From Candidatus Saccharimonadota bacterium (GTDB lineage: Archaea > Nanohalarchaeota > Nanosalinia > Nanosalinales > Nanosalinaceae), in NCBI RefSeq assembly GCF_029232205.1, contig NZ_CP107255.1, positions 600,001 to 632,000 of the forward strand: a stretch of 32,000 nt of DNA, in the 5' to 3' direction. The notes beneath the pieces are model-generated. The model searched no databases and was not told where the DNA came from. It worked only from the letters and a program-made list of their open reading frames with translations. The translations under genes were made by a program, and so were the position numbers. This document shows, one piece after another, positions 1-32,000 of the stretch (the first letter of the stretch is position 1; each line of letters starts with the position of its first letter).

Positions 1-2321
1 AGAGGGAACGAACAACCTCCACACACTGCCTGCTCATCAAACCAGGATTTCTGTATGTTGTCATTGAAAGAACCTTTTAGCAAGCTTTGCGCACGAGTCT
101 GCGCCTTAGCTACATCATCAGTAGATCTCACATCAAGATTTCCTTCACCAGTAATTACTGCGCCGTTGGAGTTGGTAAACTCGAGGCGGCAGGAATACAC
201 ATTGGTATTTATCTTTCCAACAAGAGGGACTGGCACCTGAGGGTTAGTTCCTACCCCAGTAACCTCCTTCGCAAACCAATCTTCCTCGCGTGTAGAAGGA
301 TCCAGAGAAGGCCTCTCTGAAAGCTCTCCATCCCAGCATAGAGCCCTGATAGACTCTATTGTAGCAGCCTGATCATTATCAGCATCCTCCTTGGCTTCAT
401 AATAGGTAGTAAGGAAACTGCTACTTGTTCTAAACTCATATGGCATTATGAAGAATCCTGCAGTATCAGGATTTTCGTTTCCTGTCGGTTCAAATGCGTA
501 GGCATCAAGATCCCACTGAATATCACCAGTACACTCCCAAAACTGGCCTGTATATCCCCATTGGAGGCCTGGTTCGCAGGTTGGGTAGAATCCTCCGTCG
601 AAGACACTGTCTCTTAGTACTGATACATCGTTTTCTTGAATGTTTTCTGCGGTTCCTAAGACTCCTGCAGTGTATTGGCCTGTTGCGTTGCTTGGGTTCC
701 ATACTTGTCTGATTGCTGTTTCGTCGGTGTCGTCTACTGCACGTGTGTATGCTTGTCCTCTTGAGATGTTGAGTTCGTCGTATTTTGAGGCGTTGTGTGT
801 GTAGGGTCTTTGGTATGTGTCTCCAGTTGAGCCTTCTAGGTATCTTAGTTCTGCTGCGTGGATATGGTCGAATCTTACGTTGTTGAATCCTGAGGTTGTT
901 GCAAAGCTTGTTCCTTTGAACTCGGCATTTCCTAGAGGTATGGCTTCTTTAGGCACGTAGTACTTGACTGCTAGTGCTGTTTCTGGTGCTGAAGTGTTGT
1001 GGAATGTTCCTAACCGGCAGTCGCCATCTCCAGTACACCTTCTCTGTGGATCACCGTAGCCAGGATAAGTTCGTTGACGCATGTCGTAGAGGCATGCTGT
1101 GTCTTTCTCTGTTGTAACTGGGTCGTTGCCGGTGTAGCTGTTTTCTACAGCATCATATCCTTCACAGAGAAAGATATCGGGCTCTCCGGTACGGACACTT
1201 GAGTAGACGTTGCCATAATCACAGTCAGTGGTGGCATCCGTAAAGGCGGCTCCTGAGTTTTGATCTGCAAACACCACTTTAACGCCGTCACTTTCCCTGA
1301 TGCCTACAGTCGGATCTGCACAGTTATTTTCCACATAGGGCAACCAAGAGTTTGGTTGATTTCCTCTCCAGTCTTGCCCATTTCCTAGCACATCGCACCT
1401 GAATCGACCGTTATCTGTATCTACTATTTCTCCATCCATAGAGCCACGGCAAATATGGAACAACCTATTGCCTTTCAGTATTTCTGTATCCGGGCTGTAT
1501 GTTGAACTATCATCGTGAGCTGGCGTACAGGAGTCAAAGTTATTTTCGAAGGCCGTGCATGCGCCTTTATCCTGACCTATAACATATTCCATGTCTCCGA
1601 AGTTCTGATCCCACACATCCTGTGCACCTAGGTTATCTCCCAAGTTGTGGTTGTTTGTGAAAACTTCTGATGTAGAACCTATATCCGATAGAGAAGTAGC
1701 CTCATGACCTAGTATTTCACCTGGTTGAGGCCTATATCTTCCGTAGTCATCCTCTCCATCAGGCCAGGCTTTCCAGTCTGTCTCTTGAAGAAGTATATCT
1801 CCCTGATTTATGTCGTTTACTCCGTGAATATTGCTGTTTCCAGGACTGTTGTAGAAAGGCTCCCTATCGTTCGTTAAAATAAAGTCTCTTATTTTATTCG
1901 CATTTACGTCCATCTCAACATATAGATATGCTCCTTTATTTGCACTTACACGGTCTTTAGGCTCTACAGTTAGATCAAAGGTACCTACTGTAAAGGACTC
2001 TCCTCCATCTGTCCCTGTTACAGTGACTTCATGAGTACCTACACCGCAGGGAACACTTTCAGGCACTCTGGTTGGTCCTGGAACAGACACCTCCAGATCC
2101 ACAGGCAGACCTATAGCGGAGCGGCCACCTCTACCAATGAAATCAGTTGTCTGGCCGCAAACGCTTGCTTGTACATAATCTGCACTTGGATCGCCGTCCA
2201 CTTCTTCTACAGTGACAGTTGTTGATCCACTATATTCTATAGTATTGGAATATCCTGAAATGGTTGCGGTTCCAAAAGTTGAAAAGAAGAGTACCGCAAA
2301 AATCAAGAGAATTTTCTTCAT
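1..2321 (-). CDS. Secreted Cys-rich acidic surface protein, first ~773 codons (3' end lies beyond the left window edge)
   Basis: Absent from the ORF track because it has no stop in the window. Hand translation of the minus strand from the ATG (complement of 2319-2321) stays open to position 1. I checked it codon by codon for 1-240, 720-900, 1020-1140 and 2160-2321, and read the rest once. The N-terminus MKKILLIFAVLFFSTFGTATISG looks like a signal peptide. About 18 Cys. A TATA-like element sits ~27 nt upstream. Confidence 0.7.
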   Translation of the reverse strand, partial: MKKILLIFAVLFFSTFGTATISGYSNTIEYSGSTTVTVEEVDGDPSADYVQASVCGQTTDFIGRGGRSAIGLPVDLEVSVPGPTRVPESVPCGVGTHEVTVTGTDGGESFTVGTFDLTVEPKDRVSANKGAYLYVEMDVNANKIRDFILTNDREPFYNSPGNSNIHGVNDINQGDILLQETDWKAWPDGEDDYGRYRPQPGEILGHEATSLSDIGSTSEVFTNNHNLGDNLGAQDVWDQNFGDMEYVIGQDKGACTAFENNFDSCTPAHDDSSTYSPDTEILKGNRLFHICRGSMDGEIVDTDNGRFRCDVLGNGQDWRGNQPNSWLPYVENNCADPTVGIRESDGVKVVFADQNSGAAFTDATTDCDYGNVYSSVRTGEPDIFLCEGYDAVENSYTGNDPVTTEKDTACLYDMRQRTYPGYGDPQRRCTGDGDCRLGTFHNTSAPETALAVKYYVPKEAIPLGNAEFKGTSFATTSGFNNVRFDHIHAAELRYLEGSTGDTYQRPYTHNASKYDELNISRGQAYTRAVDDTDETAIRQVWNPSNATGQYTAGVLGTAENIQENDVSVLRDSVFDGGFYPTCEPGLQWGYTGQFWECTGDIQWDLDAYAFEPTGNENPDTAGFFIMPYEFRTSSSFLTTYYEAKEDADNDQAATIESIRALCWDGELSERPSLDPSTREEDWFAKEVTGVGTNPQVPVPLVGKINTNVYSCRLEFTNSNGAVITGEGNLDVRSTDDVAKAQTRAQSLLKGSFNDNIQKSWFDEQAVCGGCSFP

Positions 2322-2343
2322 AGGCCTTGATTGGTGAGGCCTG

Positions 2344-2352
2344 TATAAAAAA
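2344..2352 (-). promoter_or_regulatory. TATA-box-like element for the 1-2321 gene (leaderless geometry)
   Basis: The minus strand reads TTTTTTATA, centred ~27 nt upstream of the ATG at 2321. Confidence 0.45.
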
Positions 2353-2359
2353 TAATGGC

Positions 2360-2422
2360 AGAGAAAGAGGTGGAAGAGAAGAGGAAAAAAGGAAGGGGAA
2401 GAAGGAAATGTGGGGAGAAAGG
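2360..2422 (-). terminator. 63-nt polypyrimidine tract (mRNA sense) directly after the 2423-3700 stop; candidate oligo-T terminator and spacer
   Basis: On the plus strand, 60 of 63 bases are purines, with an uninterrupted run at 2372-2408. The minus strand contains CCTTTTTTCC. Archaeal RNAP terminates at oligo-T. Confidence 0.3.
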
Positions 2423-3700: not shown

Positions 3701-3744
3701 GTACCTGAATTAATTTACCATCTTTTTAACTCTGAATAAGGCCT

Positions 3745-4317
3745 TCATGACTGGTCAAATTTATCCTTTATTTCGCCGATAAGTTGGTTGGCCTCACTTT
3801 CGGATGGATTGGCCCTGAGAATAAGCCTTTCTAAAATCTTTGAATCTACTATACTGCTTATATATTCTTTTTTATCCAGATTAAGGCCTTTTTCTTCGGT
3901 TTCTACCAGATTGTGCATTATTACTGCGGTTGCGTGGCTCTGGTTGAGGGAGTTGTATTTTTTGGTTTCTATGTGGATTACTGTGTCGCACATTTCGAGT
4001 TCTTTGTTGGAGAGGCCTGAGCTTTCTCTTCCTATCATTATTGATGTGTTTTTTCTTGGTGTGAACTGTTTGAGGCCTGTTCCTTTTCCAGGTTTGGTGC
4101 CGGCTACGTATTCAAGATCTTCGACTGCTTCTTTTACTGTGTCGTATATTTTGGCGTTTCTTAGTTTTTCTTGCCCGTTTTTTGCTGTTTTCCGGGCTTT
4201 TTCCAGGTTGAATTCGGGGTTGACTATTCTGATCTGGTAGTCGTAGTTGTGGGCTAGTCGGGCGATTGAGCCGGTGTTCTGCGGTATTTCTGGTTCTACG
4301 AGTATTACTGCTTTCAC
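3745..4317 (-). CDS. SPOUT (SpoU/TrmH-class) RNA 2'-O-methyltransferase, aTrmJ-like
   Basis: Motifs VILVEPEIPQNTGSIARLA, IMIGRESSGLS and NSLNQSHATAVIMH match the three SpoU motifs. GTG start at 4317. Confidence 0.8.
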   Translation of the reverse strand: MKAVILVEPEIPQNTGSIARLAHNYDYQIRIVNPEFNLEKARKTAKNGQEKLRNAKIYDTVKEAVEDLEYVAGTKPGKGTGLKQFTPRKNTSIMIGRESSGLSNKELEMCDTVIHIETKKYNSLNQSHATAVIMHNLVETEEKGLNLDKKEYISSIVDSKILERLILRANPSESEANQLIGEIKDKFDQS

Positions 4318-4353
4318 ATGGTTTTATATCGAGGCAAGATTTACATTCTTTTT

Positions 4354-5028: not shown

Positions 5029-5501
5029 TCCTCGTCTCCTTCTTCTTTTTCTCCTTTCATCTTGTCCAGCACTACTTCTTTGACTTCTCTGTCACTTTCT
5101 GCCTGTTTTTTGGCCTTCTTTTTCTCCGAGGATTTCTCTCTTATTGCACCTACTAGTTTCTTGATTCCACTGTAGATGTGTTTGAGTATGCGGTATGGTA
5201 TGGAGATCAGTGTTTCTGCTATTCCGTATGCTGAGGCCAGTACTGTGTATCCTACGTAGAGTGATGCTCCTGCGAATGCGAATAGTAGTATGTCGTTGAG
5301 GCCTGGCATTGTTCCGTATACTAGTTGTGTGAATGCGATGTATGTTCCTGCGGATAGTACTGAGACCATGATGGTTTCGAATACCATTTCCATCAGCTTG
5401 AAGGCTGCTATGAATGCTGCTAGAAGTAGGACTAGTAGAATTACTGTGCTGTATTCCTGTGGTAGCGAGCTGAATAGGCCTAGTGCCATTTTATTCTTCA
5501 C
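5025..5501 (-). CDS. Small polytopic membrane protein with a Lys/Glu-rich C-terminal tail
   Basis: 158-aa ORF with 3-4 hydrophobic helices. It overlaps or abuts the stop of the upstream 930-aa surface-protein gene (alternative start MALGLF at 5489), so co-transcription is likely. Confidence 0.6.
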   Translation of the reverse strand: MKNKMALGLFSSLPQEYSTVILLVLLLAAFIAAFKLMEMVFETIMVSVLSAGTYIAFTQLVYGTMPGLNDILLFAFAGASLYVGYTVLASAYGIAETLISIPYRILKHIYSGIKKLVGAIREKSSEKKKAKKQAESDREVKEVVLDKMKGEKEEGDED

Positions 5502-8314: not shown

Positions 8315-8839
8315 CTATTTACCCAGAATATACAGAGTTTCAAACCAGAGCTGTTTTTCATCAAGCTTCTTGAGATCATATTCCTCAATTAAGTCTTCGA
8401 TTTCTGCCAGAGAACTGGCAACTATGTAAAAACGGCCTTCTTCAGCGAGATATTCTTCTACTTCATCCAGAAACTTTTTTGTGACTTCTATCCCTTTTTC
8501 TCCTCCACGCCATATTTCTTCATCTCCTATACCTTTCTCACCCGGAAGATAGGGAGGATTGAAAACTATTACATCGTAGAGGCCTTCTATATCTTCAAAG
8601 AGATCAGAATAAATGATTTCAACGTTGAGGCCTTTTTCCTCTGCTTTTTCATTTAGTTGCTGGAGTGCTTCTCTGTTTATATCGGAGGCCGTTACTTCTG
8701 CATTTTTCTGCGCTGCAAGAAGTGCTATTTCTCCATTTCCTGTTCCTATTTCGAGGAATTTCTTGTTTTCTAGCTGTATGTTTTCTTTTAGGTAGTCTCT
8801 GAGGAGGTAGGTGTCTTCTGAGGGCTGGTATATGGTCAT
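8315..8839 (-). CDS. HemK-related N5-glutamine methyltransferase (Mtq2/PrmC-like)
   Basis: YQPSEDTYLL N-terminus, SAM motif LEIGTGNGEIAL and catalytic NPPY (VFNPPYLP). There is a 4-nt overlap with the pyrG stop. Confidence 0.8.
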   Translation of the reverse strand: MTIYQPSEDTYLLRDYLKENIQLENKKFLEIGTGNGEIALLAAQKNAEVTASDINREALQQLNEKAEEKGLNVEIIYSDLFEDIEGLYDVIVFNPPYLPGEKGIGDEEIWRGGEKGIEVTKKFLDEVEEYLAEEGRFYIVASSLAEIEDLIEEYDLKKLDEKQLWFETLYILGK

Positions 8840-12188: not shown

Positions 12189-12207
12189 AGAAGGCATAAG
12201 GCCTTCT
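12189..12207 (-). terminator. Short hairpin between rpoF and the DUF655 gene
   Basis: A 7-bp stem (12189-12195 agaaggc pairs with 12201-12207 gccttct) with a 5-nt loop. It overlaps an AGGCCT copy, and a T-run follows on the minus strand (cccttttttaac). Confidence 0.3.
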
Positions 12208-12254
12208 AGTTAAGATATTAAAGGAAGTCAAGAAGTTAAAAGGGTTTCCCGGTT

Positions 12255-12590
12255 CTAGTTTGCTGTTTCGATACTCTGACAGATCTCGAGGATGTCTTCG
12301 ATCTGTGAGTCATCCAGCTTGATCCTCTCTTTGGAGAATACTGATCTGACCGTTGATTCGTGCTGCGGTACTATTTCCAGCAGTTTGTAGATATGTTTAT
12401 CCTTCAGATCTTCGATCTCTGTGAATTCTTCGTAGAGTTCTTTGAGAGTGTCTACATCGTCTACTTTGACGTGTCGGGAAAGATTCTCCAGTGCAATCTT
12501 CTGTTCGTGGGAGAGATCTTCCTCGTCTCTTTCTTCCAGTGCTTCAAGTGCTTCAATCGGGAATACAAATTCTTCTTCTTTAATTTCCAT
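12255..12590 (-). CDS. rpoF: DNA-directed RNA polymerase subunit F (Rpo4)
   Basis: 111-aa acidic helical protein immediately downstream of rpl21e, which is the conserved archaeal gene order. Rpb4-like C-terminal pattern KHIYKLLEIVPQHESTVRSVFSKERI. Confidence 0.8.
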   Translation of the reverse strand: MEIKEEEFVFPIEALEALEERDEEDLSHEQKIALENLSRHVKVDDVDTLKELYEEFTEIEDLKDKHIYKLLEIVPQHESTVRSVFSKERIKLDDSQIEDILEICQSIETAN

Positions 12591-12608
12591 TTTTTGATCA
12601 GGCCTCTG

Positions 12609-12902
12609 TTATTCTTCCTCCAGTTTCTGGAGGTGTACTGGTGCTACGTAGAGAGTTTTATCCTTTCCGCCGTCTGTGAACTGGACTTCGTAGGCATCTC
12701 CTCTCTTTCCTGTTACTTCTACTGTTGTTCCGTGGAATCTTGCGTGAGGTTGTCCTGACTGTACTGAGGAGTCAACCTTAATCAAGGCCTTTTCTCCTTC
12801 TTCGAACTCTTTCAGGTATTCGTTTACTTTTGTTTTTGCTCCCTGGTCACGCTTGAACTTTTTCCTTGAGCCATGTAGTGCTCCTCTGGATTTCTCTGCC
12901 AT
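12609..12902 (-). CDS. rpl21e: 50S ribosomal protein L21e
   Basis: SRGALHGSRKKF and PHARFHGTTVEVTGKRGDAY are typical of L21e. 97 aa. Confidence 0.93.
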   Translation of the reverse strand: MAEKSRGALHGSRKKFKRDQGAKTKVNEYLKEFEEGEKALIKVDSSVQSGQPHARFHGTTVEVTGKRGDAYEVQFTDGGKDKTLYVAPVHLQKLEEE

Positions 12903-14929: not shown

Positions 14930-15241
14930 ATGAGAACAAGACAGGACGAACTTCGCAGAGAGGTACGGAAGAAGCTTTTACTGGCTTCGTTAGGTGTAAC
15001 TAGAGCCCTGTCCAGTATTGATTACAATATCCCTTCAAAATGGCTTTCTGTTATTGATAGTGTGACTGTTTCTTCTGAGACTGCTCACGCTCGTCTTTCT
15101 ATGCTTGACGAAGAGGTTCAGAGAGAGTACATTGAGAAGGAAGAAATGATTGAGAGAAGGCTTGGTAAAAGAAAGTTTTACGATGACGAAGAGATCGATG
15201 AGATCCGCGAACAGATTAAAAATACAGAGTTAAGGCCTTAG
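14930..15241 (+). CDS. Hypothetical charged helical protein
   Basis: This is the only long ORF in an otherwise empty 415-nt gap. Protein-like charged composition, no recognisable motif, and an uncertain start. Confidence 0.4.
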   Translation: MRTRQDELRREVRKKLLLASLGVTRALSSIDYNIPSKWLSVIDSVTVSSETAHARLSMLDEEVQREYIEKEEMIERRLGKRKFYDDEEIDEIREQIKNTELRP

Positions 15242-18424: not shown

Positions 18425-18772
18425 ATGGGTATGGAAAAATTTTACAGGACGGTGCGCAGGAAGTTTGGCCTGAACAAGGAACAGATGAAAAACGAGCTTA
18501 AACAGGAAGTAACACATGAGCTACGGGCCGAATTTGATGAAGAGATTTCCTACATCGAGGCCGAGATGAAGGAGTACGAGCAGCTTGTTGCTGAAGTTAA
18601 TCACCTGCTTTCAGTTATGCGCAAGCAGAGGATTAAGGAAGGTTCCAACAGTAAAGGCCGTCAGATCAGAATGGATGATGTTGGAGACGACATGGCACCT
18701 CTGAAGTCCAAGCTTCAGGAACTGGAGAAGTCTATGGAAGATAGGCTTGAAAGGCAGAAAGCCCTTCAATAG
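18425..18772 (+). CDS. Hypothetical coiled-coil protein
   Basis: 115-aa charged heptad-like sequence that fills the gap before ftsY. No motif recognised. Confidence 0.45.
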   Translation: MGMEKFYRTVRRKFGLNKEQMKNELKQEVTHELRAEFDEEISYIEAEMKEYEQLVAEVNHLLSVMRKQRIKEGSNSKGRQIRMDDVGDDMAPLKSKLQELEKSMEDRLERQKALQ

Positions 18773-18829
18773 GAAAATAACCACATTTTTCTTTCAAATT
18801 AAAAATTGTGAGGTTAGAGGCCTCTTTCT

Positions 18830-19714
18830 TTACTCGAGGATTTCCTCTACGAATTCTTCTTTATCGAACTCCCTGATATCTTCATAGCCCTGGCCTGTGC
18901 CAAGGAATGCTACCGGTTTACCTGATCTCTCGCTTATCGAGATAATTGCTCCGCCGTTTTCATCTACATCCATCTTTGTAACAATAACTGCGTCGAACAT
19001 GTCTTCATAGGCCTCTGCCTGTTCAAGTACGTCGTTTCCTGCGAGTGCGTCTACGACCAGGAATGTGATGTCTGGTTCGTTGACTCTTATCATTTTGTCC
19101 AGTTCGTTCATCAGGTTCTGGTCCGCGTGGCTTCTTCCCGCAGTATCGACCAGTGCTACTTTGCCTTCATTTTTGGCGTGTTCAACAGTGTCATATCCTA
19201 CTGCAGCTGGATCTGACTCGTACTCGTGGCTGATTACCTTGACGTCGAGGTTTTCTCCGTGCTCTTCCAACTGTTCGATGGATGCTGCTCTGAATGTGTC
19301 GCCGGCGCCCATTACTACTCCTCGATCTTTGAGTTTTGAGGCCATTTTTGCCACACTTGTTGTCTTTCCAGAGCCGTTAAACCCTATGAAGAATACTACA
19401 GGAGGTTCATCTGCTTCATCAAGTTTTTCTTCAAAGTTGAAGCTGTCATCAAGCAGTTCAAGGAGTACTTCTTCGACTGCGTTGTCTACTGTTTCCTGTA
19501 CTTTTCCTCGGCCGACTTCCTGGCCCAGAAGCTTTTCTCGGAGTTCTTCTTCTATGGCCTCTGCTGCCTCCAGAGATACATTGCTTTGGAGCAGTTTCAG
19601 TCTGAGCTCTTCAAGTAGTGGGTTGAGTGTGTCTTCGTCTAGTTCTTTTTCCGCTACCTTGCTCTTTACGCTGGATGAGAAGTCTTTTACTGAGTCCTTG
19701 AACTTTTCTAGCAT
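18830..19714 (-). CDS. ftsY: SRP receptor FtsY
   Basis: FIGFNGSGKTTSVAKMA, GDTFRAASIEQL and DTAGRSH. It has the conserved position downstream of pfdA. Confidence 0.95.
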   Translation of the reverse strand: MLEKFKDSVKDFSSSVKSKVAEKELDEDTLNPLLEELRLKLLQSNVSLEAAEAIEEELREKLLGQEVGRGKVQETVDNAVEEVLLELLDDSFNFEEKLDEADEPPVVFFIGFNGSGKTTSVAKMASKLKDRGVVMGAGDTFRAASIEQLEEHGENLDVKVISHEYESDPAAVGYDTVEHAKNEGKVALVDTAGRSHADQNLMNELDKMIRVNEPDITFLVVDALAGNDVLEQAEAYEDMFDAVIVTKMDVDENGGAIISISERSGKPVAFLGTGQGYEDIREFDKEEFVEEILE

Positions 19715-20226: not shown

Positions 20227-20406
20227 TTACTCCTGTTCGGAAACGTCTTCAATTGTGATTTTTGATCTTGGGATAGAATGTTCGCTGCCGAGTTCTGCGT
20301 AAAGCTTCTCTTCAGCGTGGTTCTCGGACTCTGCATCGACTTCTCTCTCAAAGCCGTGGGTGCTTCGTCCCAGATTAATTTCTCCTGAAAATGTGTATAC
20401 AGTCAT
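20227..20406 (-). CDS. rplX: 50S ribosomal protein LX (eL20/L18Ae family)
   Basis: Hand-translated 59-aa ORF, below the track cutoff: MTVYTFSGEINLGRSTHGFEREVDAESENHAEEKLYAELGSEHSIPRSKITIEDVSEQE. This matches the LX pattern (Y.v.G.......F..ev.A.....A.E..Y...GS.H......I.I). Located 9 nt upstream of pfdA. Confidence 0.8.
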   Translation of the reverse strand: MTVYTFSGEINLGRSTHGFEREVDAESENHAEEKLYAELGSEHSIPRSKITIEDVSEQE

Positions 20407-20429
20407 ACAAAAGGTAGAAACCGACGAAC

Positions 20430-20437: not shown

Positions 20438-20518
20438 CCTAATATTGTGCAGTAGATTTCCTATCACATACCAGGTAACTCCAGTACCTTTTAGTAAAGG
20501 CCTGAATTTTTTACTGTT

Positions 20519-21943
20519 ATGAGGCCTGAGGTATTTTCAGAGCGTTCTAAAATTTTTTGTCTTTCGGCCTCTGTCCTGGCATGTTTTACTTTGTTTTTGG
20601 GCTTTTATGGTGTTTCGGAGCCAAATATTTCTTTTCAATCTCCGGATGATGGCCTGAGTTCTTCAGGAAGTACCGTGGGTTCTCTTGAGTCGGTGTCTTC
20701 AGATTCTGTAGAGCTTGAGAAAGGTCTTCGGGCGTATTACAGGTTTGATGATGCAGAGAATTCTGCAGGGTATTATTTCTCGGATAAGGCTGGTGGCGGT
20801 TTTGAGGCCGAGTTCGGGGATTCTAGTAGAGGCCTTATTGATTTTGATACTTCTGGTTACTGGAGGCCTGGAAGAGTTGGGGATTATTCTTTACGTTTTA
20901 ATGAGTCGAGGGATACGGAGGTTACTTTCGGTTTGAGTAGTGAGAGCAGGGATTCTCTGAATTCTGGTTCTTTTGCTGTTAGTTACTGGTTGAAGCCTGA
21001 GTCGACAACAGCCCGTCGTTGGGCTAATTATATGATGTTTTCTGGGTCTTCTTCCAGGGTTGAGATAATGGATCCTAGTGTTGATTGGGGCGGTATTGAG
21101 ACGCTTGCAGTTTTCTGGGAGAAGAGTGATGGTTCTGAGGTACGTGTTAATTCCACCTCAGATGCTACGGAGCTGGATCCTGGCGAGTGGAATAATGTTC
21201 TGTTTCAGTACGATGGCCAGGAGTTTGAGTTGTGGATTAACGGGGAGCTTGCAGAATCTAATAGTGTTTCAACTAGTTTAGAACCTGTTGATAGTCCTTT
21301 GGTGGCTTCAGGAGATAATATTACCTGGGGCCTTGACAATCTTGCTATCTACAATCGGAGTTTTTCCGGAAAAGAGGTCAGGGCCTTGAGCAACTTGACA
21401 GATAATTTCAGGAAGACTGATGAGTGGCGTTTTGAGGCTGGTTCTGGTTCTAAAGTGTATAACAGCGCTAATCTTGACAGGAAAGGTGTTCTGGATGCTG
21501 ATTCTGTTGTTCTGGACAATAATACCAATATTTCAGTTAATGGTTCTGTTCTTGATACGGGCCAGAACTTTACTATTTCTTTCTGGCTGAAGTCGGAGTA
21601 TAACGAGGTGAATGTTCTTTCAGGCCTTGATAGCGGTGTTTTCGTGGATATTGATGATGGTTTAAGCTGCGGTACTTATTCTGGGGCCGATATTGACAGT
21701 GTCGGTGGTACGAGGTTTTTCGAGAATAAGTGGAATCATGTCTCTCTGGTTCGTGATGACAGCGAGTTTACCTGCACGGTTAACGGAGAACGGTTGGGAA
21801 GCATGCAGTCCGCTGATATCAGTTCTGAGGCCTTTGTATTTGGTGGAAATATCAGTGGTTCGAGGAGTTTCAACATAGATGAGCTTAGATTGTATAATAG
21901 AAGTCTGACAGCATCGAATGTGGAGAGCCTGGGGTTTCGGTAG
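20519..21943 (+). CDS. N-terminally anchored double LamG (concanavalin-A-like lectin) domain surface protein
   Basis: TM/signal FCLSASVLACFTLFLGFYG. Two LamG_3-type modules each end in the hallmark LAIYNRSFSGKEVRAL or ELRLYNRSLTASNVESL. W-x-H/N-V core strands are present. Confidence 0.8.
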   Translation: MRPEVFSERSKIFCLSASVLACFTLFLGFYGVSEPNISFQSPDDGLSSSGSTVGSLESVSSDSVELEKGLRAYYRFDDAENSAGYYFSDKAGGGFEAEFGDSSRGLIDFDTSGYWRPGRVGDYSLRFNESRDTEVTFGLSSESRDSLNSGSFAVSYWLKPESTTARRWANYMMFSGSSSRVEIMDPSVDWGGIETLAVFWEKSDGSEVRVNSTSDATELDPGEWNNVLFQYDGQEFELWINGELAESNSVSTSLEPVDSPLVASGDNITWGLDNLAIYNRSFSGKEVRALSNLTDNFRKTDEWRFEAGSGSKVYNSANLDRKGVLDADSVVLDNNTNISVNGSVLDTGQNFTISFWLKSEYNEVNVLSGLDSGVFVDIDDGLSCGTYSGADIDSVGGTRFFENKWNHVSLVRDDSEFTCTVNGERLGSMQSADISSEAFVFGGNISGSRSFNIDELRLYNRSLTASNVESLGFR

Positions 21944-22474
21944 TTAGAGGCCTTTGATTTTGTCAAGTACTTTGAATTTTCTGTGGAATGCGTGCATTTC
22001 TTCTCGGGCTATTTCTCCGTATCCGAGGTAGCTTTCTACGTTGCTCAGTGATTTGATCGTGTTCATGTCTATTTCTTCGCTGTCTTGTTTGAGGGCCTGA
22101 AGTTTTTCGTTGAGCTCTTCTACTCTTTCATCGTCGTCGACTGCTTCTTTTATCCTGATCATTTCGTTGGCGGCCTGTCCCAGTCTTTTATCCCATTTTT
22201 CGAGGTCCTGTGTTAGATTATTCTGTAGTTCTGATGCGAAGCTGTTCAGTTTCTGAATGTTTTCTTCCTCTACTTTAACCGTTGTCTCGCCGTTCTTTCT
22301 TTCTACTGTGAGCAGGCCTTCGTTGGCGAGTTCTTTCATCCAGTTGCGGCCTCTCTGCCTGTTTACACCGATTGAATTGCATAATTCTTCTAGTTGTGCT
22401 GGTGATTCTTTGAAGGCCTTTCTGAAGAATGTGCTTACTCCGGGATCTGTCAGGAGTTTTTCTTTTCTGCTCAC
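21944..22474 (-). CDS. Winged-helix DNA-binding protein with C-terminal coiled coil
   Basis: wHTH-like segment LEELCNSIGVNRQRGRNWMKELANEGLLTVERKNGETTVKV followed by a helical acidic region. Confidence 0.55.
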   Translation of the reverse strand: MSRKEKLLTDPGVSTFFRKAFKESPAQLEELCNSIGVNRQRGRNWMKELANEGLLTVERKNGETTVKVEEENIQKLNSFASELQNNLTQDLEKWDKRLGQAANEMIRIKEAVDDDERVEELNEKLQALKQDSEEIDMNTIKSLSNVESYLGYGEIAREEMHAFHRKFKVLDKIKGL

Positions 22475-27169: not shown

Positions 27170-27206
27170 AGTTGGTTATTGGACCTGAAATTATAAACCG
27201 GTTTGT

Positions 27207-27731
27207 CTATTCGAAGCTGACTTCGCTTCCGCCTGAGTCTGCTGTTGTTTCGAATCCTTGGAACAGTTTGAATAGGATTTGTACTGCGAGGAAGAATACT
27301 GCTGCGCCTCTTAGTGTGTCGGGTGTTACCCCCAGGTCTGTTTTGACGAATATTACTGTGATGTAGGCGAGTGTGTATACGATTCCGGAGGATGAGACGA
27401 TGAATGCGATTGTGTCGGGCCATTTGTGGTAGAAGTCCATGTAGCCGACTATTGCTCCGATTCCGATGAGCGAGTATGCGGCTTTTTCTTCTCCAGCTGA
27501 TAGGTTGGAGTTGATGAGTAGGTTGGCGCCTGTTGTGATCCAGATGATTGCGTTTCCTACTGCTGTGTTCCATCCGAGTTCTTCGTGTGTGAATCTTCCG
27601 AAGTAGAGTTCGATCACTATTCCGCCTATAATGATTGGCAGGAGTGTTGGCAGAAGTTCTGGCTGTCTGATAGGTGTGTAGATGAATGTTTCTAGAGCTA
27701 CCTGTAGTGATGTTCCTCCTGTTATTGCCAT
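27207..27731 (-). CDS. Polytopic membrane protein, function unknown
   Basis: 174 aa with about 5 hydrophobic helices. Its start is only 8 nt downstream of the ATPase gene stop, so it is likely co-transcribed. Confidence 0.6.
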   Translation of the reverse strand: MAITGGTSLQVALETFIYTPIRQPELLPTLLPIIIGGIVIELYFGRFTHEELGWNTAVGNAIIWITTGANLLINSNLSAGEEKAAYSLIGIGAIVGYMDFYHKWPDTIAFIVSSSGIVYTLAYITVIFVKTDLGVTPDTLRGAAVFFLAVQILFKLFQGFETTADSGGSEVSFE

Positions 27732-27739
27732 TTTGGTGA

Positions 27740-28987
27740 TCAGTCCTCGAATGCGTCTGGTGTTCCTCCTGCGTGCCAGGATTTTCTTGGTCTCATCTGT
27801 ACTGGGTAGACTCTTTCGGAGTTGTCGTCCAGTATTAGGCCTGTTCCGGCTCTGTCAGGTAGTGCATCGATGTAGTGTTTCAGGTCGTGGCGCATGTATG
27901 TCTGCATGATTTCGCCTAATGCATCGATGTCCTGTTTTGCTGTCAGTCTGTGTGATAGAAGTACATCGCACTGGGAAAGTGCGTTTGGGTGAAGTTTTGC
28001 TGGTTGCTGGGTTGCAAGCACAAGCGATACACCTGGCTCTCTACCGATCTTCACCCATCTCAGAAGTGTGTCAGTGGCCGGAGTCTTGCCTTTGTTCGGT
28101 ACAAACTCGTGGGCTTCGTCAATCATCATCCATACGATAGGCATTTCGTTGGAATCAAGGCCTTGCATTTCGTCGAGTTCTTCCATTCTTCTTGCGGCCA
28201 TTCTCTGTCTTAGTATTTTTTCTCCGAGCAGTCCTACGATGAGGCCTCTTACCAGTTCGTCGTACATTGATACATCGACTACCGACATTTCTCCTCTTGT
28301 CGTGAACTGATCGAGCGAGGATTCGTCTCCGAATACTCCCCATTCTTCTGCTGTCATGAACCTGTTTTCGAGGGCCTTGACTGTTGATTCGTTGAAATCG
28401 AATTTTTTGATTGCCTTATTTATGTCGTCAAGATCGTAGTTTCGGCCTAGTTTGTCCTGTAGTTTTGAGATTGCTCTTTCAAGTAGGATGCCCATTTCTG
28501 AGTTCATTTCGATGTCGAATGCCATAGCCCAGTCTTGGGCTGAGAGTTCTGCTGGGTCGATTGTGAATGTGTTGTCGTATGGCATGTCTTTTTTGTCGAA
28601 TTCGTCTCTTCTTCCTTCTGGAATGTATATTTTGGCGTCGAAGGCCTCTGGTTTGGTGTCCCATTCTTCTAGCATGCCTGCTGCTCTGTCGTTTGGTCTT
28701 TTCATTGACCAGTAGATTCCCATTGAGTCGATAACTATCGTAGAAAGGTTGTCTGATACGTCTGTTGTCTGTAGTTCTTCTGCAATGGTTCCCATGGAGT
28801 AGGATTTACCTGTTCCTCTTTTACCGAAGATTCCCATGACGTGGGGCTTTGCCAGATCGAAGTATATTGTATTGGCTTTGTGTGCTTCCTCGTTTTCCCC
28901 TACTAGGTGTTTACCGATAACTCCTGTTCCTTTGAGGCCGTGTTTCTCTCTGTCCTCCTCATTTCTTCCTACACTGATCTTCGGCAT
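27740..28987 (-). CDS. HerA/FtsK-superfamily (DUF87-type) P-loop ATPase lacking an N-terminal HAS-barrel
   Basis: Walker A GIFGKRGTGKSYSMG at about residue 55, Walker B VWMMIDEAHEF, and the downstream LATQQPAKLHPNALSQCDVLLSHRL segment typical of HerA-like ATPases. 415 aa. Confidence 0.85.
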   Translation of the reverse strand: MPKISVGRNEEDREKHGLKGTGVIGKHLVGENEEAHKANTIYFDLAKPHVMGIFGKRGTGKSYSMGTIAEELQTTDVSDNLSTIVIDSMGIYWSMKRPNDRAAGMLEEWDTKPEAFDAKIYIPEGRRDEFDKKDMPYDNTFTIDPAELSAQDWAMAFDIEMNSEMGILLERAISKLQDKLGRNYDLDDINKAIKKFDFNESTVKALENRFMTAEEWGVFGDESSLDQFTTRGEMSVVDVSMYDELVRGLIVGLLGEKILRQRMAARRMEELDEMQGLDSNEMPIVWMMIDEAHEFVPNKGKTPATDTLLRWVKIGREPGVSLVLATQQPAKLHPNALSQCDVLLSHRLTAKQDIDALGEIMQTYMRHDLKHYIDALPDRAGTGLILDDNSERVYPVQMRPRKSWHAGGTPDAFED

Positions 28988-29010
28988 ATCTGTCTTTACC
29001 GCAGGCTTGA

Positions 29011-29020
29011 ATATAAAATA
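29011..29020 (-). promoter_or_regulatory. TATA-box-like element for the HerA-like ATPase gene
   Basis: The minus strand reads TATTTTATAT, centred ~28 nt upstream of the ATG at 28987 and 4 nt after the upstream gene's stop. Confidence 0.4.
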
Positions 29021-29023
29021 TGG

Positions 29024-29632
29024 TTAGAATGTGAGGGCGTAGAGCACTAGGGTGAGGCCCATAAAGATCAGCCATGTGAATCCTGTCCACCGGAGTATAA
29101 ATGCTCCGTCAAGTTCTTCTCCTGGTAGGCCTTCGTAGTCGAACGGTAGTAGGAAGAAGAAGCTGGTTACTGCATACATTCTTGAGATTATGTTCCACCC
29201 AAGGCCTCCTGTGATTGCTGCCCCTATTATCAGTGAGAGTATTCCGCAGGAGTAGAGCCAGTATTTTCTTTTCATCCATGTTGAGTCTGTGGATTTACCC
29301 CATTGTTCGTATTTTTCGGATTCTGCTTCGTTCCATAGTGGGAAGAGCAGTATGATTGGCAGTTGTGTGATTACTGCGAGGAATGCCCCCATTATTGAAG
29401 TCATTGCTCCGCTGATAGAGATATTGTTGTCTACGTATGCGTCCATCCACTGTGCGCAGGTTCTGAATCCGAACTCTCTTGTTAGAAGTACTGCTATTGA
29501 GAGCCCTGTGTAGTATATAAGGCCTCGGGGTGTGAGTTCCTGGAAGAATGCTGCGAATGATGCTCCGAATACTATTGATGCTACCAGAAAATTCTTTACA
29601 TCTTCTTCGTCAGGAACGTAGCTTGAGGTCAT
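29024..29632 (-). CDS. Polytopic membrane protein, M50 (site-2 protease)-like with a degenerate metal site
   Basis: LLTREFGFRTCAQ aligns to the hhHExGHhh helix (HExxH replaced by REFGF). FLLPF...LDGAFILRW aligns to the NxxPxxxLDG motif. The protein contains no His at all. Family call is tentative. Confidence 0.55.
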   Translation of the reverse strand: MTSSYVPDEEDVKNFLVASIVFGASFAAFFQELTPRGLIYYTGLSIAVLLTREFGFRTCAQWMDAYVDNNISISGAMTSIMGAFLAVITQLPIILLFPLWNEAESEKYEQWGKSTDSTWMKRKYWLYSCGILSLIIGAAITGGLGWNIISRMYAVTSFFFLLPFDYEGLPGEELDGAFILRWTGFTWLIFMGLTLVLYALTF

Positions 29633-29656
29633 CTTTATCGAAAAATTTTGTGTTCG

Positions 29657-29667
29657 AAATTAAATAA
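29657..29667 (-). promoter_or_regulatory. TATA-box-like element for the M50-like membrane protein gene
   Basis: The minus strand reads TTATTTAATTT, centred ~30 nt upstream of the ATG at 29632. Confidence 0.35.
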
Positions 29668-29675
29668 GGCCGTTG

Positions 29676-30155
29676 TTAAATCTTCATTTCCATGCACATT
29701 TCCGCGACAGAATAGTTCTCCGAGTCACGAAGGATTTCCGGGTACTGCTGAATGTCATCGATATGAAGGCCTGTTTCCCCGTTTTCGTATGCTTCTCTGA
29801 CATCTTCCCATGGTACCATGTACGCTTTTCTGGCTCGGCCTCTACCTCTTTTGAGTTCGACTGCGAGAAATCCTGTTCTTCCAGATCTGTCCACGAAGTC
29901 GGATATTCTTTCTACCTGGTGGCCTCCGTTGCTCTGTGAGAAGTGCTGTGAGAAGTAAAGTTTGTTGGTTGAGGAGGTCTTCACCGATTTGTTTTCGATC
30001 GCCAGGTAAAACATGTCATGCTCTGAATCCACCAGTACATCACATAGCTGGCTGGAGAATCGGTGCTGTTTCTTTCGGTGAGCTATTCCATTTAGTTCTT
30101 CCTCATCGAAAAACTGGTTGAAAGAATTCACTAAGGCCCTTTCAAAGTCTGTCAT
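29676..30155 (-). CDS. PD-(D/E)xK nuclease-fold protein, Hjc-like Holliday junction resolvase candidate
   Basis: The order FERALV (Glu) ... CDVLVDS (Asp) ... YLAIENKS (E-x-K) matches the Hjc/restriction-endonuclease-like catalytic layout. 159 aa. Confidence 0.55.
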   Translation of the reverse strand: MTDFERALVNSFNQFFDEEELNGIAHRKKQHRFSSQLCDVLVDSEHDMFYLAIENKSVKTSSTNKLYFSQHFSQSNGGHQVERISDFVDRSGRTGFLAVELKRGRGRARKAYMVPWEDVREAYENGETGLHIDDIQQYPEILRDSENYSVAEMCMEMKI

Positions 30156-30220
30156 AAGGAAATATGGGGGATGGTTGAATAAAAATCATTCTCAATTTTG
30201 CTGAGATCTCCTTAAAACCC

Positions 30221-32000
30221 TTATTTGAATGCTAGAGCTTGAACTTCCTCTTTTGGAAGACTGCGATTATAGATCCTTAGCTCATCAGCTTTTCCTTCTA
30301 GATTTTCGCCCATAATTAATTTTCCAGAGGAATTAGAGTCCATTCCAACCTGCTTTGAGGATCTTTCTTGGCCTCCGATATACAGTTTTTGAGTTGAGCC
30401 ATTGAAGTTTAAAGATACGTGCCGCCATGAGGCCCCAATCTCTGCGGTTGTTATGCTTTTTCCAACAGAACCAACAACTACTTCGTCATCAATACCTAGA
30501 TAATAGTCTCCTTCATTTACAGAGGCAACAGTACCTACAGGATAGCGAACTAGAACAATACCAGAACCTCCGTCACCACCGAGGCCTCCACCATCACTTC
30601 CTCCGCCGCCACCTCCACCAGTGTTCGACATGCCGTCATATCCATTGTTATGCGTCTTGTCGCCTCCACCTTCACCACCGCCTCCTAATCCGCCTAGGCC
30701 TCCATAACCAGAACCATCTCCACCTGTATTTGCTCCTCCGCCACCTCCACCGGCGAAATATCCTTCGTCTCCGTATCTCATACCGAACTCTTCAGAGAAG
30801 TTTAGGCCTTTACCACCGTCTCCACCGTCGGTAGGATTAGTTATTACGATAGTCTCGCCCTGCTCTCCTGCTCCGCCTCCTCCAGCACCAAAGTCTCCGT
30901 TAGTGGTAGGTACGTCTCCACCATCGCTGCCTGAGCCTCTTGAAGTAATATCTTGCTGGGTTGAGTTTCCTCCTAAACCATTATCGTTGCCTGCTCCACC
31001 GCCAGATCCGCCGCTAAGACCATCTGAACCATCATCAGATCCTCTACCACCGCCTCCGCCTCCGATAGCTTTTACATCTTTAAAGCTCGAGTTTTCGCCG
31101 TTATTGCCGAAAGATGGCGTAGTTGTTCCTCCACTACCTCCATCTCCAACTTTAACGGTGTAGGCGCCTGAATTTAGACTATAATTATTCAGATATACGA
31201 GGCCTCCTGCTCCACCTCCTCCTGAGCCTCCATTATTATTTCCAGTATTTGAGGATCCTCCTCCGCCACCACCTGCAACTATAAGGGCGTCTACGTCTAA
31301 TTCTCCACCAGTGACATTTAGAGAAGATTCTCCTACGTTTGTAAATGCATGAACCTTGTAGAGAATTCCATTATCCTTGACATAATACTTATCTTCGCCT
31401 CCTATCACGTCAATGGAATCTTGATCAGATTTTACCCAGGAAGAAATAGTTACTTTACTATCAACGCTGGTAAGACCGAATTTCTTTATATTGCCGCTAT
31501 CTAAACCCACAGAATAGCTATCTAGAACTCCTCTTCTATTCATGTCTGAAGTATCATAAGCTGTTTTCCTATCACCTTCCTCAAATCTCCATCTGCCAAT
31601 TAGTCTATCATTAACCTGTTTGCCATTGTATAGAGCCCTAACTTCAGAAGTAGAAAGGGCCTTTGAGTATATTCTGGCGTCATCTATCTTACCGTTGAAA
31701 TAACCAGTTGTTCCTTCCTTATCAGCGCCTATTGTAACATCTGCATCAAAAGCTTCAAGGTTTCTATTTGTGGTTTCTGAACCTACTTGATCGCCGTTAA
31801 CATACAACTTCCTGGTTCCTGTCTTCTCTGAATATGTTAATGCGACGTGAACCCATTCATTATCTGGAATACTTGTTGCCGAGCCACAGTCATCCCCTCC
31901 ATCTCCAATGCACCCATATAATCCTCCAGATTTGGTAGCAATGAACCAGAAAAAGTTCCCTTCTCTCTTAGATATAATCTTATCATATGTTCCTGAGATA
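30221..32000 (-). CDS. LamG-domain surface protein with a nested glycine-rich domain (5' end lies beyond the right window edge)
   Basis: The track ORF starts at a TTG at 31807, but hand translation upstream (…NEWVHVALTYSEKTGTRKLYVNGDQ) stays open to 32000. LamG hallmarks ARIYSKALSTSEVRALY and LRIYNRSLPKEEVQAL are present. The Gly-rich core runs from YKVHAFTNVG…LIVAGGGGGG to …GSGIVLVRY. Confidence 0.85.
   Translation of the reverse strand, partial: ISGTYDKIISKREGNFFWFIATKSGGLYGCIGDGGDDCGSATSIPDNEWVHVALTYSEKTGTRKLYVNGDQVGSETTNRNLEAFDADVTIGADKEGTTGYFNGKIDDARIYSKALSTSEVRALYNGKQVNDRLIGRWRFEEGDRKTAYDTSDMNRRGVLDSYSVGLDSGNIKKFGLTSVDSKVTISSWVKSDQDSIDVIGGEDKYYVKDNGILYKVHAFTNVGESSLNVTGGELDVDALIVAGGGGGGSSNTGNNNGGSGGGGAGGLVYLNNYSLNSGAYTVKVGDGGSGGTTTPSFGNNGENSSFKDVKAIGGGGGGRGSDDGSDGLSGGSGGGAGNDNGLGGNSTQQDITSRGSGSDGGDVPTTNGDFGAGGGGAGEQGETIVITNPTDGGDGGKGLNFSEEFGMRYGDEGYFAGGGGGGANTGGDGSGYGGLGGLGGGGEGGGDKTHNNGYDGMSNTGGGGGGGSDGGGLGGDGGSGIVLVRYPVGTVASVNEGDYYLGIDDEVVVGSVGKSITTAEIGASWRHVSLNFNGSTQKLYIGGQERSSKQVGMDSNSSGKLIMGENLEGKADELRIYNRSLPKEEVQALAFK
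30560..31276 (-). repeat. Low-complexity glycine-codon tract, (GGN)n-rich on the coding strand and CCN-rich on the plus strand
   Basis: There are repeated runs such as ccgccgccacctccacc, ccgccacctccaccgg, ccaccgcctccgcctcc and cctcctccgccaccacctgc. They encode G5-G7 blocks spaced through about 240 codons. Confidence 0.8.

Follow-up and report, generated by a model that had tools for sequence, protein, structure and literature searches.

AGGCCT, a palindromic hexamer in strong excess in three clades of nanohaloarchaea, as a possible genome-wide DNA tag

The window analysed here is a stretch of 32,000 nt from contig NZ_CP107255.1 (positions 600,001–632,000; assembly GCF_029232205.1) with a G + C content of 44.8%. 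It contains about 35 genes, mainly on the minus strand, including those for CTP synthase, KsgA, DUF655, Rpb4/RpoF, L21e, Pus10, SRP54, FtsY, prefoldin and rpLX, as well as Hef, a HerA-like ATPase and LamG-domain surface proteins; no tRNA and no Rfam matches were obtained in the window. The palindrome AGGCCT, which is found in nearly all window genes of at least 300 bp and also in the spacers, is in strong excess throughout this stretch and is the subject of the present analysis. The SRP54 sequence places the source organism in the Nanohaloarchaeota, with strain M3_22 (CP046106.1) as the nearest relative (94% amino acid identity). M3_22 has been assigned to Ca. Nanohalovita together with the cultivated BNXNv, whose G + C content is 45.0% (PMC10266531, PMC10443357).

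The initial annotation of this DNA had reported about 83 copies of AGGCCT against 5–8 expected. The automated recount gave exactly 83, at identical positions, while 7.0 copies are expected under a first-order Markov model (a 12x excess) and 6.8 ± 2.4 were found in 100 dinucleotide-preserving shuffles of the window, with a maximum of 15. The expectation rises to 19.3 for an order-2 and 44.8 for an order-3 model, and the value of 78 for order 4 is circular because the 5-mers AGGCC and GGCCT already hold the signal. AGGCCT is the sole outlier among the 64 palindromic hexamers, and TGGCCA, CGGCCG and GGGCCC are at or below expectation. A synonymous-codon shuffle performed per gene, with the protein sequence (hence the dipeptides) and the codon usage held constant, gave 15.1 ± 3.4 copies (maximum 28 in 1000 shuffles) versus 76 observed in the coding sequences (z = 18). 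These 76 sites occupy all three codon phases, as previously claimed: 11 are AGG-CCT (phase 0), 19 xAG-GCC-Txx (phase 1) and 46 xxA-GGC-CTx (phase 2). The claim of denser spacers was likewise borne out, as seven copies lie in 1,288 bp of non-coding DNA with 35% GC (a total that counts the 59-amino acid rpLX as a gene), which corresponds to about 5.4/kb versus 2.5/kb in coding DNA. None of the three outcomes by which the initial annotation proposed to give up the excess, namely a much lower recount, a ratio near 1 under a codon-aware null and equal enrichment of neighbouring words, was found.

The analysis of similar words showed that the whole hexamer is constrained, but not evenly. GGCC as such occurs 225 times versus 64 expected in the window, and on the plus strand AGGCC continues with T in 83 of 109 cases. 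The neighbours that differ in an outer base (AGGCCV/BGGCCT) are about 3-fold enriched in the window and those that differ in an inner base are not; in the enriched loci described below, outer-base deviants reach about 2–3.2x and inner-base deviants 0.5–0.9x of expectation, and the codon-aware null agrees. The earlier statement that the one-base neighbours are each clearly rarer than AGGCCT has to be qualified in that the outer-base ones and GGCC as a whole are themselves enriched. Flanks depend on the clade: A-AGGCCT-T is preferred in clade A and AG-AGGCCT-CT in clade B, equally or more strongly in non-coding DNA. The absence of an extended flanking consensus was thus correctly noted as far as anything beyond one or two bases is concerned, and a weak A-AGGCCT-T preference exists in the window's own clade. 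To regard the 6-mer as the unit was essentially right, with the additions that the GGCC core bears most of the constraint and that the flanks are clade-specific.

The comparison sample comprised the syntenic SRP54 locus of about 35 nanohaloarchaeal genomes and metagenome contigs, one locus per genome, referred to by L numbers. The AGGCCT excess was found in eight distinct sequences including the window, and nearly all the others showed 0–2x. The enriched genomes include CP046106.1 (M3_22), NZ_CP180230.1 (VS9-1) and the metagenome-assembled ones to which L011, L015, L035, L041 and L044 belong, and the non-enriched ones JALDAJ010000001.1 (NHA25). In a bootstrapped tree of nine concatenated proteins, built with a strict orthologue filter, the enriched loci form three clades. 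Clade A consists of the window (12x, first-order Markov), L019 (7x), L044 (9x) and L015 (10x). Clade B gathers L014 (Ca. Nanosalina sp. VS9-1; 20x) and L041 (14x), and its sister is the non-enriched L017. Clade C contains L035 (20x) and L011 (18x), with the weakly enriched L039 and L042 (intermediate, 2.5–3.2x) nested as the sister of L011. The tree backbone is weakly resolved; in a tree with five enriched loci, the enriched genomes were monophyletic in 0 of 200 bootstraps. Pooled densities amount to 2.95 sites/kb (446 in 151 kb) in enriched and 0.178/kb (53 in 298 kb) in non-enriched loci, which is a 16.6-fold difference. The signature recurs in independent assemblies from five sources (NCBI complete genomes, metagenome-assembled genomes (MAGs), JGI, ENA and Logan) and is therefore not an artefact. 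The window organism itself was present in one Logan run only, SRR26436575, of which one contig aligns with the window over 11.6 kb without a mismatch and with a single gap.

To describe the strength of the force, we considered the positions at which the encoded protein permits the word, i.e., Arg-Pro, [KEQ]-Ala-[FLSYCW] and Gly-Leu preceded by a codon able to end in A. In the window 60% of the permitted positions (76/127) are filled, and the values are 77% in L014, 72% in L011 and 45–56% in L019/L015, versus about 7% (46/667) in the non-enriched relatives. In the enriched clades, Gly is encoded by GGC in 70–77% of cases before Leu vs 22–26% elsewhere, Arg by AGG in 57–88% before Pro vs 17–21% elsewhere, and Ala by GCC in 71–73% within [KEQ]A[FLSYCW] vs 19–26% elsewhere; the base ahead of Gly-Leu is A in 77–87%. 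The non-enriched relatives use these codons at 17–21% in the contexts that complete AGGCCT, and the background usage is equal in both groups. Codon choice switches only in the contexts that complete AGGCCT.

The permissive peptides are themselves more frequent than composition predicts in the enriched genomes (RP 1.57, [KEQ]A[FLSYCW] 1.72, xGL 1.35) and not in the relatives (0.99, 1.12 and 0.94, respectively). The P values of this excess range from 5e-6 to 2e-10, and for the control peptides with the residues reversed (PR, LG and G[IV]) the two groups have equal values. The residues at the sites are slightly less conserved, with an identity to the non-enriched orthologues of 0.53 vs 0.58 overall. 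It is worth noting that 153 of 208 sites needed an amino acid change, a count that by itself we did not accept as proof of induced change, as most tripeptides differ anyway at 58% protein identity; that amino acid changes were induced is deduced from the excess of permissive peptides instead. In the enriched loci, non-coding DNA carries 4.34 sites/kb vs 2.84/kb in coding DNA (0.09 vs 0.18/kb in the relatives), and the spacer density is 5.6/kb in convergent, 4.2/kb in tandem and 3.1/kb in divergent spacers. Because all three spacer types are rich, and convergent spacers at least as rich as divergent ones, AGGCCT is not a promoter element, and a promoter, boundary or regulatory function was rejected.

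The sites also repel each other. Only 28 pairs closer than 60 nt were found versus 49.9 expected (combined p ~4e-4), and in each of the five strongly enriched loci the coefficient of variation of the spacing is lower than under the null (combined p ~1e-4); the null consisted of random subsets of permissive positions from which impossible overlaps had been excluded. The force acts on the double-stranded word, on all six positions, most strongly on the GGCC core and more weakly on the A and T at the ends; it prevails over the choice among synonymous codons, shifts the amino acid sequence and is stronger in unconstrained spacer DNA. The initial annotation had concluded from the enrichment that selection or a directed bias works on the hexamer at the DNA level, which is supported by the codon switching, the 60% vs about 7% occupancy, the rich spacers and the on/off pattern among clades.

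A scan of 5- to 8-mers for an alternative iterated palindrome in the non-enriched relatives yielded only GAGATAGAG, which, with overlapping words, is 7–15x over-represented in the non-enriched L002, L021, L008, L007 and L003. Unlike AGGCCT, GAGATAGAG occurs almost solely on the sense strand and in phase 0 (Glu-Ile-Glu, with an ATA codon), i.e., it reflects a peptide and codon effect, and it was rejected as an alternate palindrome.

The enriched genomes share 37–61% of their sites, compared with 12–25% for hexamers generally. In large part, the sharing is due to the near-saturation of permissive positions together with the conservation of the peptides, and we therefore did not accept site conservation as decisive proof of selection. 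The enriched L011 and L035 have 60% of sites in common at 71% DNA identity, versus 12% for L011 and its closer sister L042 at 73% identity (background 16%). Of the sites common to L011 and L035, 3 of 15 (20%) are kept in L042, where ordinary conserved hexamers are kept in 28% and GC-matched ones in 18% of cases. This retention is at background, and AGGCCT in L042 therefore evolves like any other word. All six AGGCCT copies in the aligned part of L042 coincide with L011 sites (p ~0.14 given 72% occupancy). For clade C, the sequences make a loss in L039/L042 and two separate gains equally parsimonious, with two events each; the residual 2.5–3.2x mildly favours a loss, and the maintaining factor may be what this lineage has lost. 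L039 and L042 are 99.9% identical contigs from different assemblies.

Several further observations concern the compared loci. Clade A has a lower occupancy than clades B and C (45–60% vs 72–77%), more outer-base deviants and more GGCC outside AGGCCT, and its recognition system may be weaker, younger or relaxed. GGCC is almost completely avoided in L007 (21.3 kb; 4 vs 52 expected) and in L027 (14.9 kb; 0 vs 15), which suggests that GGCC-specific restriction systems circulate in nanohaloarchaea. ACCGGT reaches 3–4x its first-order expectation in enriched and non-enriched loci alike (e.g., L019, L007, L004–L010), in all three phases, and is thus a second palindrome in excess, far weaker than AGGCCT. 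L006 (JBLGBK010000005.1) bears the title of a 'Colwellia polaris' MAG. In the SRP54 region it is nanohaloarchaeal and clusters with L009/L010 (100% bootstrap), so that it is probably a mislabelled or contaminated bin.

In the window, the 83 copies, listed without regard to strand, start at positions 309, 565, 1728, 2322, 2337, 2692, 3192, 3739, 3884, 4013, 4073, 4525, 4595, 5012, 5299, 5476, 5787, 5880, 7343, 7463, 7707, 7833, 8580, 8628, 9284, 10485, 10518, 11001, 11381, 12006, 12199, 12600, 12785, 13044, 13312, 13916, 14215, 14599, 15233, 15933, 16169, 16232, 16340, 17155, 17304, 17848, 18102, 18818, 19009, 20084, 20498, 20522, 20830, 20864, 21622, 21828, 21948, 22314, 22414, 22634, 22656, 23045, 23176, 23420, 23683, 23785, 24496, 25155, 25920, 26277, 27066, 27837, 28158, 28242, 28642, 29127, 29202, 29520, 29767, 30582, 30696, 30804 and 31200.

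Two non-coding copies lie upstream of the surface-protein gene at 3–2321 (minus strand): the one at 2322–2327 directly adjoins its ATG (2321) and the one at 2337–2342 lies between a TATA-like run (TTTTTTATA, minus strand) and this ATG. The plus strand, with CAT-AGGCCT at 2319–2327, reads ...ttcttCAT AGGCCT tgattggtg AGGCCT gtataaaaaataat. On the minus strand, positions 2322–2360 are promoter-like, with the arrangement TTTTTTATAC-AGGCCT-CACCAATCA-AGGCCT-ATG, i.e., two copies between the TATA-like run and the start, and there is no space for a leader between this run and the start codon at 2321. The non-coding copy at 3739–3744 adjoins the stop of the gene encoding a SpoU-type methylase (3745–4317, minus strand), 38 nt upstream of the DUF1512 start (3700). 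Downstream of rpoF, the non-coding copy at 12199–12204 forms part of the stem and loop of the hairpin AGAAGGC-CUUAU-GCCUUCU, followed by a U-run; this hairpin at about 12190–12215 (minus strand) has a minimum free energy of -20.9 kcal/mol (z = -2.2, 105-nt spacer) and looks like a terminator, with an A/U-rich run after it. The non-coding copy at 12600–12605 lies in the 18-nt spacer between rpl21e (12609–12902, minus strand) and rpoF/Rpb4 (12255–12590, minus strand).

The copy at 15233–15238 is the core of TAAGGCCTTA (15231–15240) in the overlap of the convergent genes 14930–15241 (plus strand) and srp54 (15238–16530, minus strand), and its T15238 is part of the srp54 stop codon. The non-coding copy at 18818–18823 lies in the convergent spacer between 18425–18772 (plus strand) and ftsY (18830–19714, minus strand). 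In the divergent spacer between rpLX (20228–20407, minus strand) and a LamG-domain gene (20519–21943, plus strand), a non-coding copy at 20498–20503 lies 15 nt upstream of the ATG; a phase 0 copy at 20522–20527 follows the start codon at 20519 immediately (ATG AGG CCT, Met-Arg-Pro). The coding copy at 21948–21953 belongs to the final codons of the gene 21944–22474 (minus strand), at its convergent junction with 20519–21943. The examples given in the initial annotation (2322/2337, 15233, the hairpin at 12199, and 20498/20522 around the ATG at 20519) were found as described. However, the general statement that the word often sits at gene boundaries reduces to a higher density in every spacer type, with no preferred position.

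The rpLX gene encodes the 59-amino acid ribosomal protein LX/L18A and falls below the threshold of 60 amino acids applied in calling open reading frames; it was taken from the gene calls on the matching Logan contig. A further 1.1 kb or so of the surface-protein gene is supplied by a second Logan contig. A divergent ATPase of the HerA/FtsK superfamily (27740–28987, minus strand) lies between hydrophobic proteins at 27207–27731 and 29024–29632. This ATPase has weak matches only, to anti-phage HerA, to repair HerA and to a DNA-translocating ATPase model, and beside it a 159-amino acid protein with a weak Hjc-like match is encoded at 29676–30155 (minus strand). The gene set 27207–30155 (minus strand) could be a DNA-handling module.

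It is quite possible that AGGCCT is an actively maintained genome-wide DNA tag of the kind represented by the cyanobacterial highly iterated palindrome (HIP) HIP1 or by uptake sequences, and that it depends on a lineage-specific recognition system. The determinant would be a protein that is confined to certain lineages, is readily acquired or lost and recognises the palindrome as a symmetric site on duplex DNA; in its likeliest form, it may be a cytosine methyltransferase specific for AGGCCT or GGCC that acts together with a reader in uptake, recombination or repair. In uptake, recombination or repair, DNA with the (methylated) word would be favoured; an allele with a newly gained site would spread, and one that has lost a site would be replaced. 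Such molecular drive might be reinforced by selection for distinguishing self from scavenged foreign DNA. Drive coupled to recombination would lead to accumulation to near-saturation and to a roughly even spacing. We propose this mechanism because of the core-dominant constraint on 6 bp, the clade dialects, the on/off pattern, the rich spacers, the inflated peptides, the even spacing and the decay. From the occupancy odds (45–77% vs 7%) and the mutation-selection-drift relation, we estimate a scaled advantage per site of about 3–4, which over thousands of redundant sites seems easier to reach by drive than by site-by-site selection.

Some published data fit the proposed DNA tag. Nanohaloarchaea have been proposed to import environmental DNA for nucleotides (PMC10266531). 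Strain M3_22, which belongs to the clade of the window, has exactly one Type II methyltransferase, of the N4-methylcytosine (m4C) class (PMC10609329). The AGGCCT restriction-modification system of Alcanivorax borkumensis methylates the second C according to single-molecule real-time sequencing (PMC12128166), and an enzyme predicted by REBASE to be AGGCCT-specific is an m4C methyltransferase that acts at GGGCCC (PMC6700114). The annotation of all window genes with Pfam and NCBIfam gave only the RNA and protein methyltransferases SpoU, KsgA and HemK2/MTQ2, and a scan of every open reading frame in all loci for 5-methylcytosine (m5C) and N4/N6 catalytic motifs returned only the MTQ2 orthologue. 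This HemK2/MTQ2 protein methyltransferase (8315–8839, minus strand, beside pyrG) is the only one in the region with an NPPY motif; since enriched and non-enriched genomes both carry it, it is not the determinant. Across the syntenic loci, none of the window genes is distributed in accordance with the trait.

Several points weigh against the tag and the drive behind it. In the window and the syntenic loci, no trait-linked gene was found for a methyltransferase, a nuclease, a reader or an uptake function, and drive and site-by-site selection give indistinguishable patterns in the present data. The sole published nanohaloarchaeal methylome, that of SVXNc, reports GDGCHC only (PMC10266531, PMC11001535), and SVXNc may not be AGGCCT-rich; BNXNv, which shares its genus with M3_22, is reported with a Type III system only (PMC10266531). 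Both the methylation of AGGCCT and natural transformation are presumed steps in nanohaloarchaea. A 6-bp word holds little information as a signal of self, and the known uptake sequences are 9–12 bp long and non-palindromic. Moreover, the spacing statistics come from syntenic loci, which within a clade are only partly independent of each other; the results from the three clades are in agreement.

According to an alternative that we consider unlikely, AGGCCT is bound by an abundant protein that associates with the nucleoid or organises the chromosome, and selection keeps a site every 200–400 bp with no part played by methylation or exchange. A role in nucleoid structure was argued for HIP1 by Xu et al. 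(PMC5861425), and three features of our data suit it: the even spacing and the short-range repulsion suggest that coverage outweighs count, the constraint is graded from the GGCC core over the outer bases to the flanks like a binding-energy matrix, and the sites lie in all genomic compartments. However, a protein together with thousands of sites would have had to be gained three times independently (or lost many times), the per-site advantage of about 3–4 is high for a small-population symbiont whose sites are individually redundant and number in the thousands, and no candidate protein specific to the enriched loci was found among the window and syntenic genes. Exact 6-bp palindromes are, moreover, typical of restriction-modification enzymes. 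A methylation-marked identity or uptake-type signal, which the initial annotation had also listed among its candidate roles, fits more of the evidence than the binding site of an abundant protein.

Somewhat less probable still is a neutral by-product of methylation-linked biased repair, with the word as such devoid of function, either a Dcm/Vsr-like conversion of T:G to C:G or a methyl-directed mismatch-repair ratchet of the type proposed by Elhai for HIP1, in which the same bias towards outer-base deviants is seen (PMC4390886). The on/off distribution would suit a mobile methyltransferase gene, and the most depleted inner-base classes are the C-to-T neighbours, with AGGCTT/AAGCCT at 0.63 of expectation vs 0.98 in the relatives and AGGTCT/AGACCT at 0.86 vs 1.14. 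However, starting from the state of the non-enriched relatives, the conversion of all AGGCTT/AAGCCT would give at most a 4.2x increase, that of all AGGTCT/AGACCT 5.7x and both together 8.9x, while 16.6x is observed. Vsr-type repair would also empty the C-to-T classes, which still hold 72% of the per-kb density of the relatives and explain at most about 14% of the gain, and a site-autonomous mutational bias predicts neither the repulsion nor the 2–3x excess of outer-base deviants. An m4C mark, the class of the enzyme of M3_22, does not deaminate to T. For M3_22, a REBASE-based survey lists neither Vsr nor an m5C methyltransferase (PMC10609329), and no such genes were found in the window. As sole cause, the mismatch-repair footprint considered in the initial annotation thus falls short, with a 4–9x ceiling vs 16.6x, and the regulatory role considered there does not agree with the richness of all spacer types. 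An Elhai-type ratchet acts on all positions and may be a cause.

That the excess merely follows from base composition, a preference for certain codon pairs or the make-up of the proteins (e.g., of acidic halophile proteins rich in Gly-Leu or Arg-Pro), to which the 46 of 76 coding sites in the Gly-Leu phase and the order-4 expectation of 78 might point, is hardly credible and was ruled out, as the order-4 figure is circular, the synonymous shuffle stays far below the observed count, all phases and the non-coding DNA are enriched, codons switch by context, there are 16.6x fewer sites in relatives whose proteins and background codon usage are the same, and the peptide-driven GAGATAGAG, unlike AGGCCT, keeps to one strand and one phase. 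The many copies of an identical short word might equally recall what is left of a repeat family or a small mobile element, or an artefact of assembly or of adaptors, an idea with practically no chance of being right and likewise ruled out, as no consensus extends past one or two flanking bases, sites lie in frame within the conserved housekeeping genes srp54, ftsY, pus10 and hef, and independent assemblies, including the Logan contig, agree.

To return to AGGCCT as a maintained tag, a more specific and more doubtful proposal is that DPANN ectosymbionts have, at least three independent times, evolved a self-tag similar to HIPs or uptake signal sequences (USS), with AGGCCT probably methylated and spread by recombination-coupled drive of sufficient strength to alter codons and amino acids. 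Their genomes of about 1 Mb would be marked at about 10x the estimated density in host DNA: from base composition alone, we estimate about 0.3 AGGCCT/kb for GC-rich host DNA (~65% G + C) vs 3–4.5/kb in the enriched nanohaloarchaea. Own and conspecific DNA would be kept, repaired or recombined, and imported host or environmental DNA would be degraded for nucleotides. If true, the self-tag would be the first archaeal example, with a bearing on how host-dependent, DNA-importing DPANN symbionts handle self and non-self DNA.

Hyper-abundant short palindromes have been puzzling since HIP1 was described three decades ago, and the function of HIPs is only now being tied to methylation-dependent DNA uptake and recombination. 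The nanohaloarchaea would add an independent archaeal case with a different word and a much smaller genome, in which 45–77% of the opportunities are filled and proteins are bent to fit. The sister lineages with and without the trait would make the HIP1 problem, long without a solution, accessible to a comparative approach, since on/off states in close lineages permit a screen of gene presence and absence that is barely possible in cyanobacteria. If the cultivated Ca. Nanohalovita BNXNv shares the excess, direct tests of its methylome and DNA-binding proteins would be possible. In practice, AGGCCT is a strong marker for binning and lineage assignment, and it inflates apparent sequence conservation and measures of codon bias. 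The literature searched contains no paper on both Nanohaloarchaeota and AGGCCT and no report of a genome, of whatever group, in which this word is in excess; the published papers on the nanohaloarchaeal methylome and genomes make no reference to it.

Comparison with known systems was made for several classes of iterated or recognised words. StuI-type systems, such as that of A. borkumensis, share the word itself, i.e., enzymes that read and methylate AGGCCT exist (PMC12128166). However, the site of a restriction enzyme is normally avoided in the genome that encodes this enzyme (PMC4687349), as is seen for GGCC in L007 and L027, and AGGCCT is accumulated, which is the opposite of what is expected for the target of an active Type II system. 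The Dcm/Vsr system and the CCWGG excess of E. coli resemble the present case in the over-representation of a palindromic methylation site and in some depletion of C-to-T derivatives, and differ from it in that conversion of the T-neighbours does not account for the AGGCCT excess (4.2–8.9x vs 16.6x) and the neighbour classes are still filled. Chi, the RecBCD hotspot, is also an over-represented short word and acts in recombination and repair. It is asymmetric, strand-oriented with replication and merely few-fold enriched, and archaea are not known to have RecBCD. For methylated HIP1, a function similar to that of Chi has been put forward (bioRxiv 10.1101/2024.09.10.611283).

A scan of viral contigs for AGGCCT triplets gave, among the matches listed, no nanohaloarchaeal virus, and tandem repeats and non-halophilic contigs were found instead. 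Two IMG/VR contigs, L052 (3.6 kb) and L127 (5.0 kb), carry dispersed AGGCCT with 13 vs 1.3 and 8 vs 1.3 expected copies, respectively, i.e., up to about 10x. They are 94% identical over 2.2 kb, have 36% G + C and proteins that are not halophile-like, and are unrelated to nanohaloarchaea; they may represent another AGGCCT-rich system.

The likeness to the USS of Pasteurellaceae and the DNA uptake sequences (DUS) of Neisseriaceae, which are present in thousands of copies, is closer. Both these words and AGGCCT occur in all frames, are richer where constraint is low and are evenly spaced (PMC2817400, PMC7811141), and both have a strong core with weaker flanks, clade 'dialects' and a preference for less conserved residues. 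The tripeptides encoded by USS/DUS are inflated about 2x (PMC2817400), compared with 1.35–1.7x for AGGCCT (1.35–1.72x vs 0.94–1.12 in the relatives), and even spacing, here seen as 28 vs 49.9 close pairs, is the expected outcome of uptake-biased drive (PMC7811141). In contrast, USS/DUS are long, asymmetric motifs of 9–12 bp at about 1/kb, and AGGCCT is a 6-bp palindrome with one or two weak flanking bases and a much weaker discrimination; the uptake bias is experimentally demonstrated for USS/DUS and presumed for nanohaloarchaea.

The HIPs of cyanobacteria are 15–300x over-represented and have outer-base deviants and cognate orphan methyltransferases (PMC4390886, PMC5861425). Methylated HIP1 boosts natural transformation and recombination (bioRxiv 10.1101/2024.09.10.611283), and the abundance of HIP1 co-varies with DNA-uptake genes (bioRxiv 10.64898/2026.06.24.733823). 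HIP1 (GCGATCGC) and AGGCCT are both GC-rich palindromes found in all frames and in intergenic DNA (PMC4390886, PMC5861425), and to the at least about 15-fold excess characteristic of HIPs AGGCCT corresponds with 12x in the window, 7–20x in the eight loci and 16.6x relative to the non-enriched relatives, based on one locus per genome. Both have deviants in the first and last base, sites shared above background, a quasi-regular distribution and lineage-specific exceptions or replacement variants, and for both the mechanism is debated between methylation-linked repair, nucleoid structure and uptake or recombination. AGGCCT differs in being a 6-mer and not an 8-mer, in its sequence, which is neither GCGATCGC nor a described alternate, and in its occurrence in archaeal DPANN symbionts and not in cyanobacteria; its density is 3–4.5/kb vs about 1/kb for HIP1, and its distribution is patchy (three clades with non-enriched sisters) vs phylum-wide. 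Moreover, HIPs are defined by a cognate methyltransferase, and none was found for AGGCCT in the window or the syntenic loci. A periodicity of 10–90 kb is a further trait of HIPs; for AGGCCT, the regularity measured is that at short range, the window having 32 kb. AGGCCT works like a HIP but stands outside the described HIP set: the phenomenon is of a known kind, and what is new with respect to HIP- and USS-like words is the sequence and the length of the word, its occurrence in another domain of life, the degree of saturation and a patchy distribution that recurs in separate clades.

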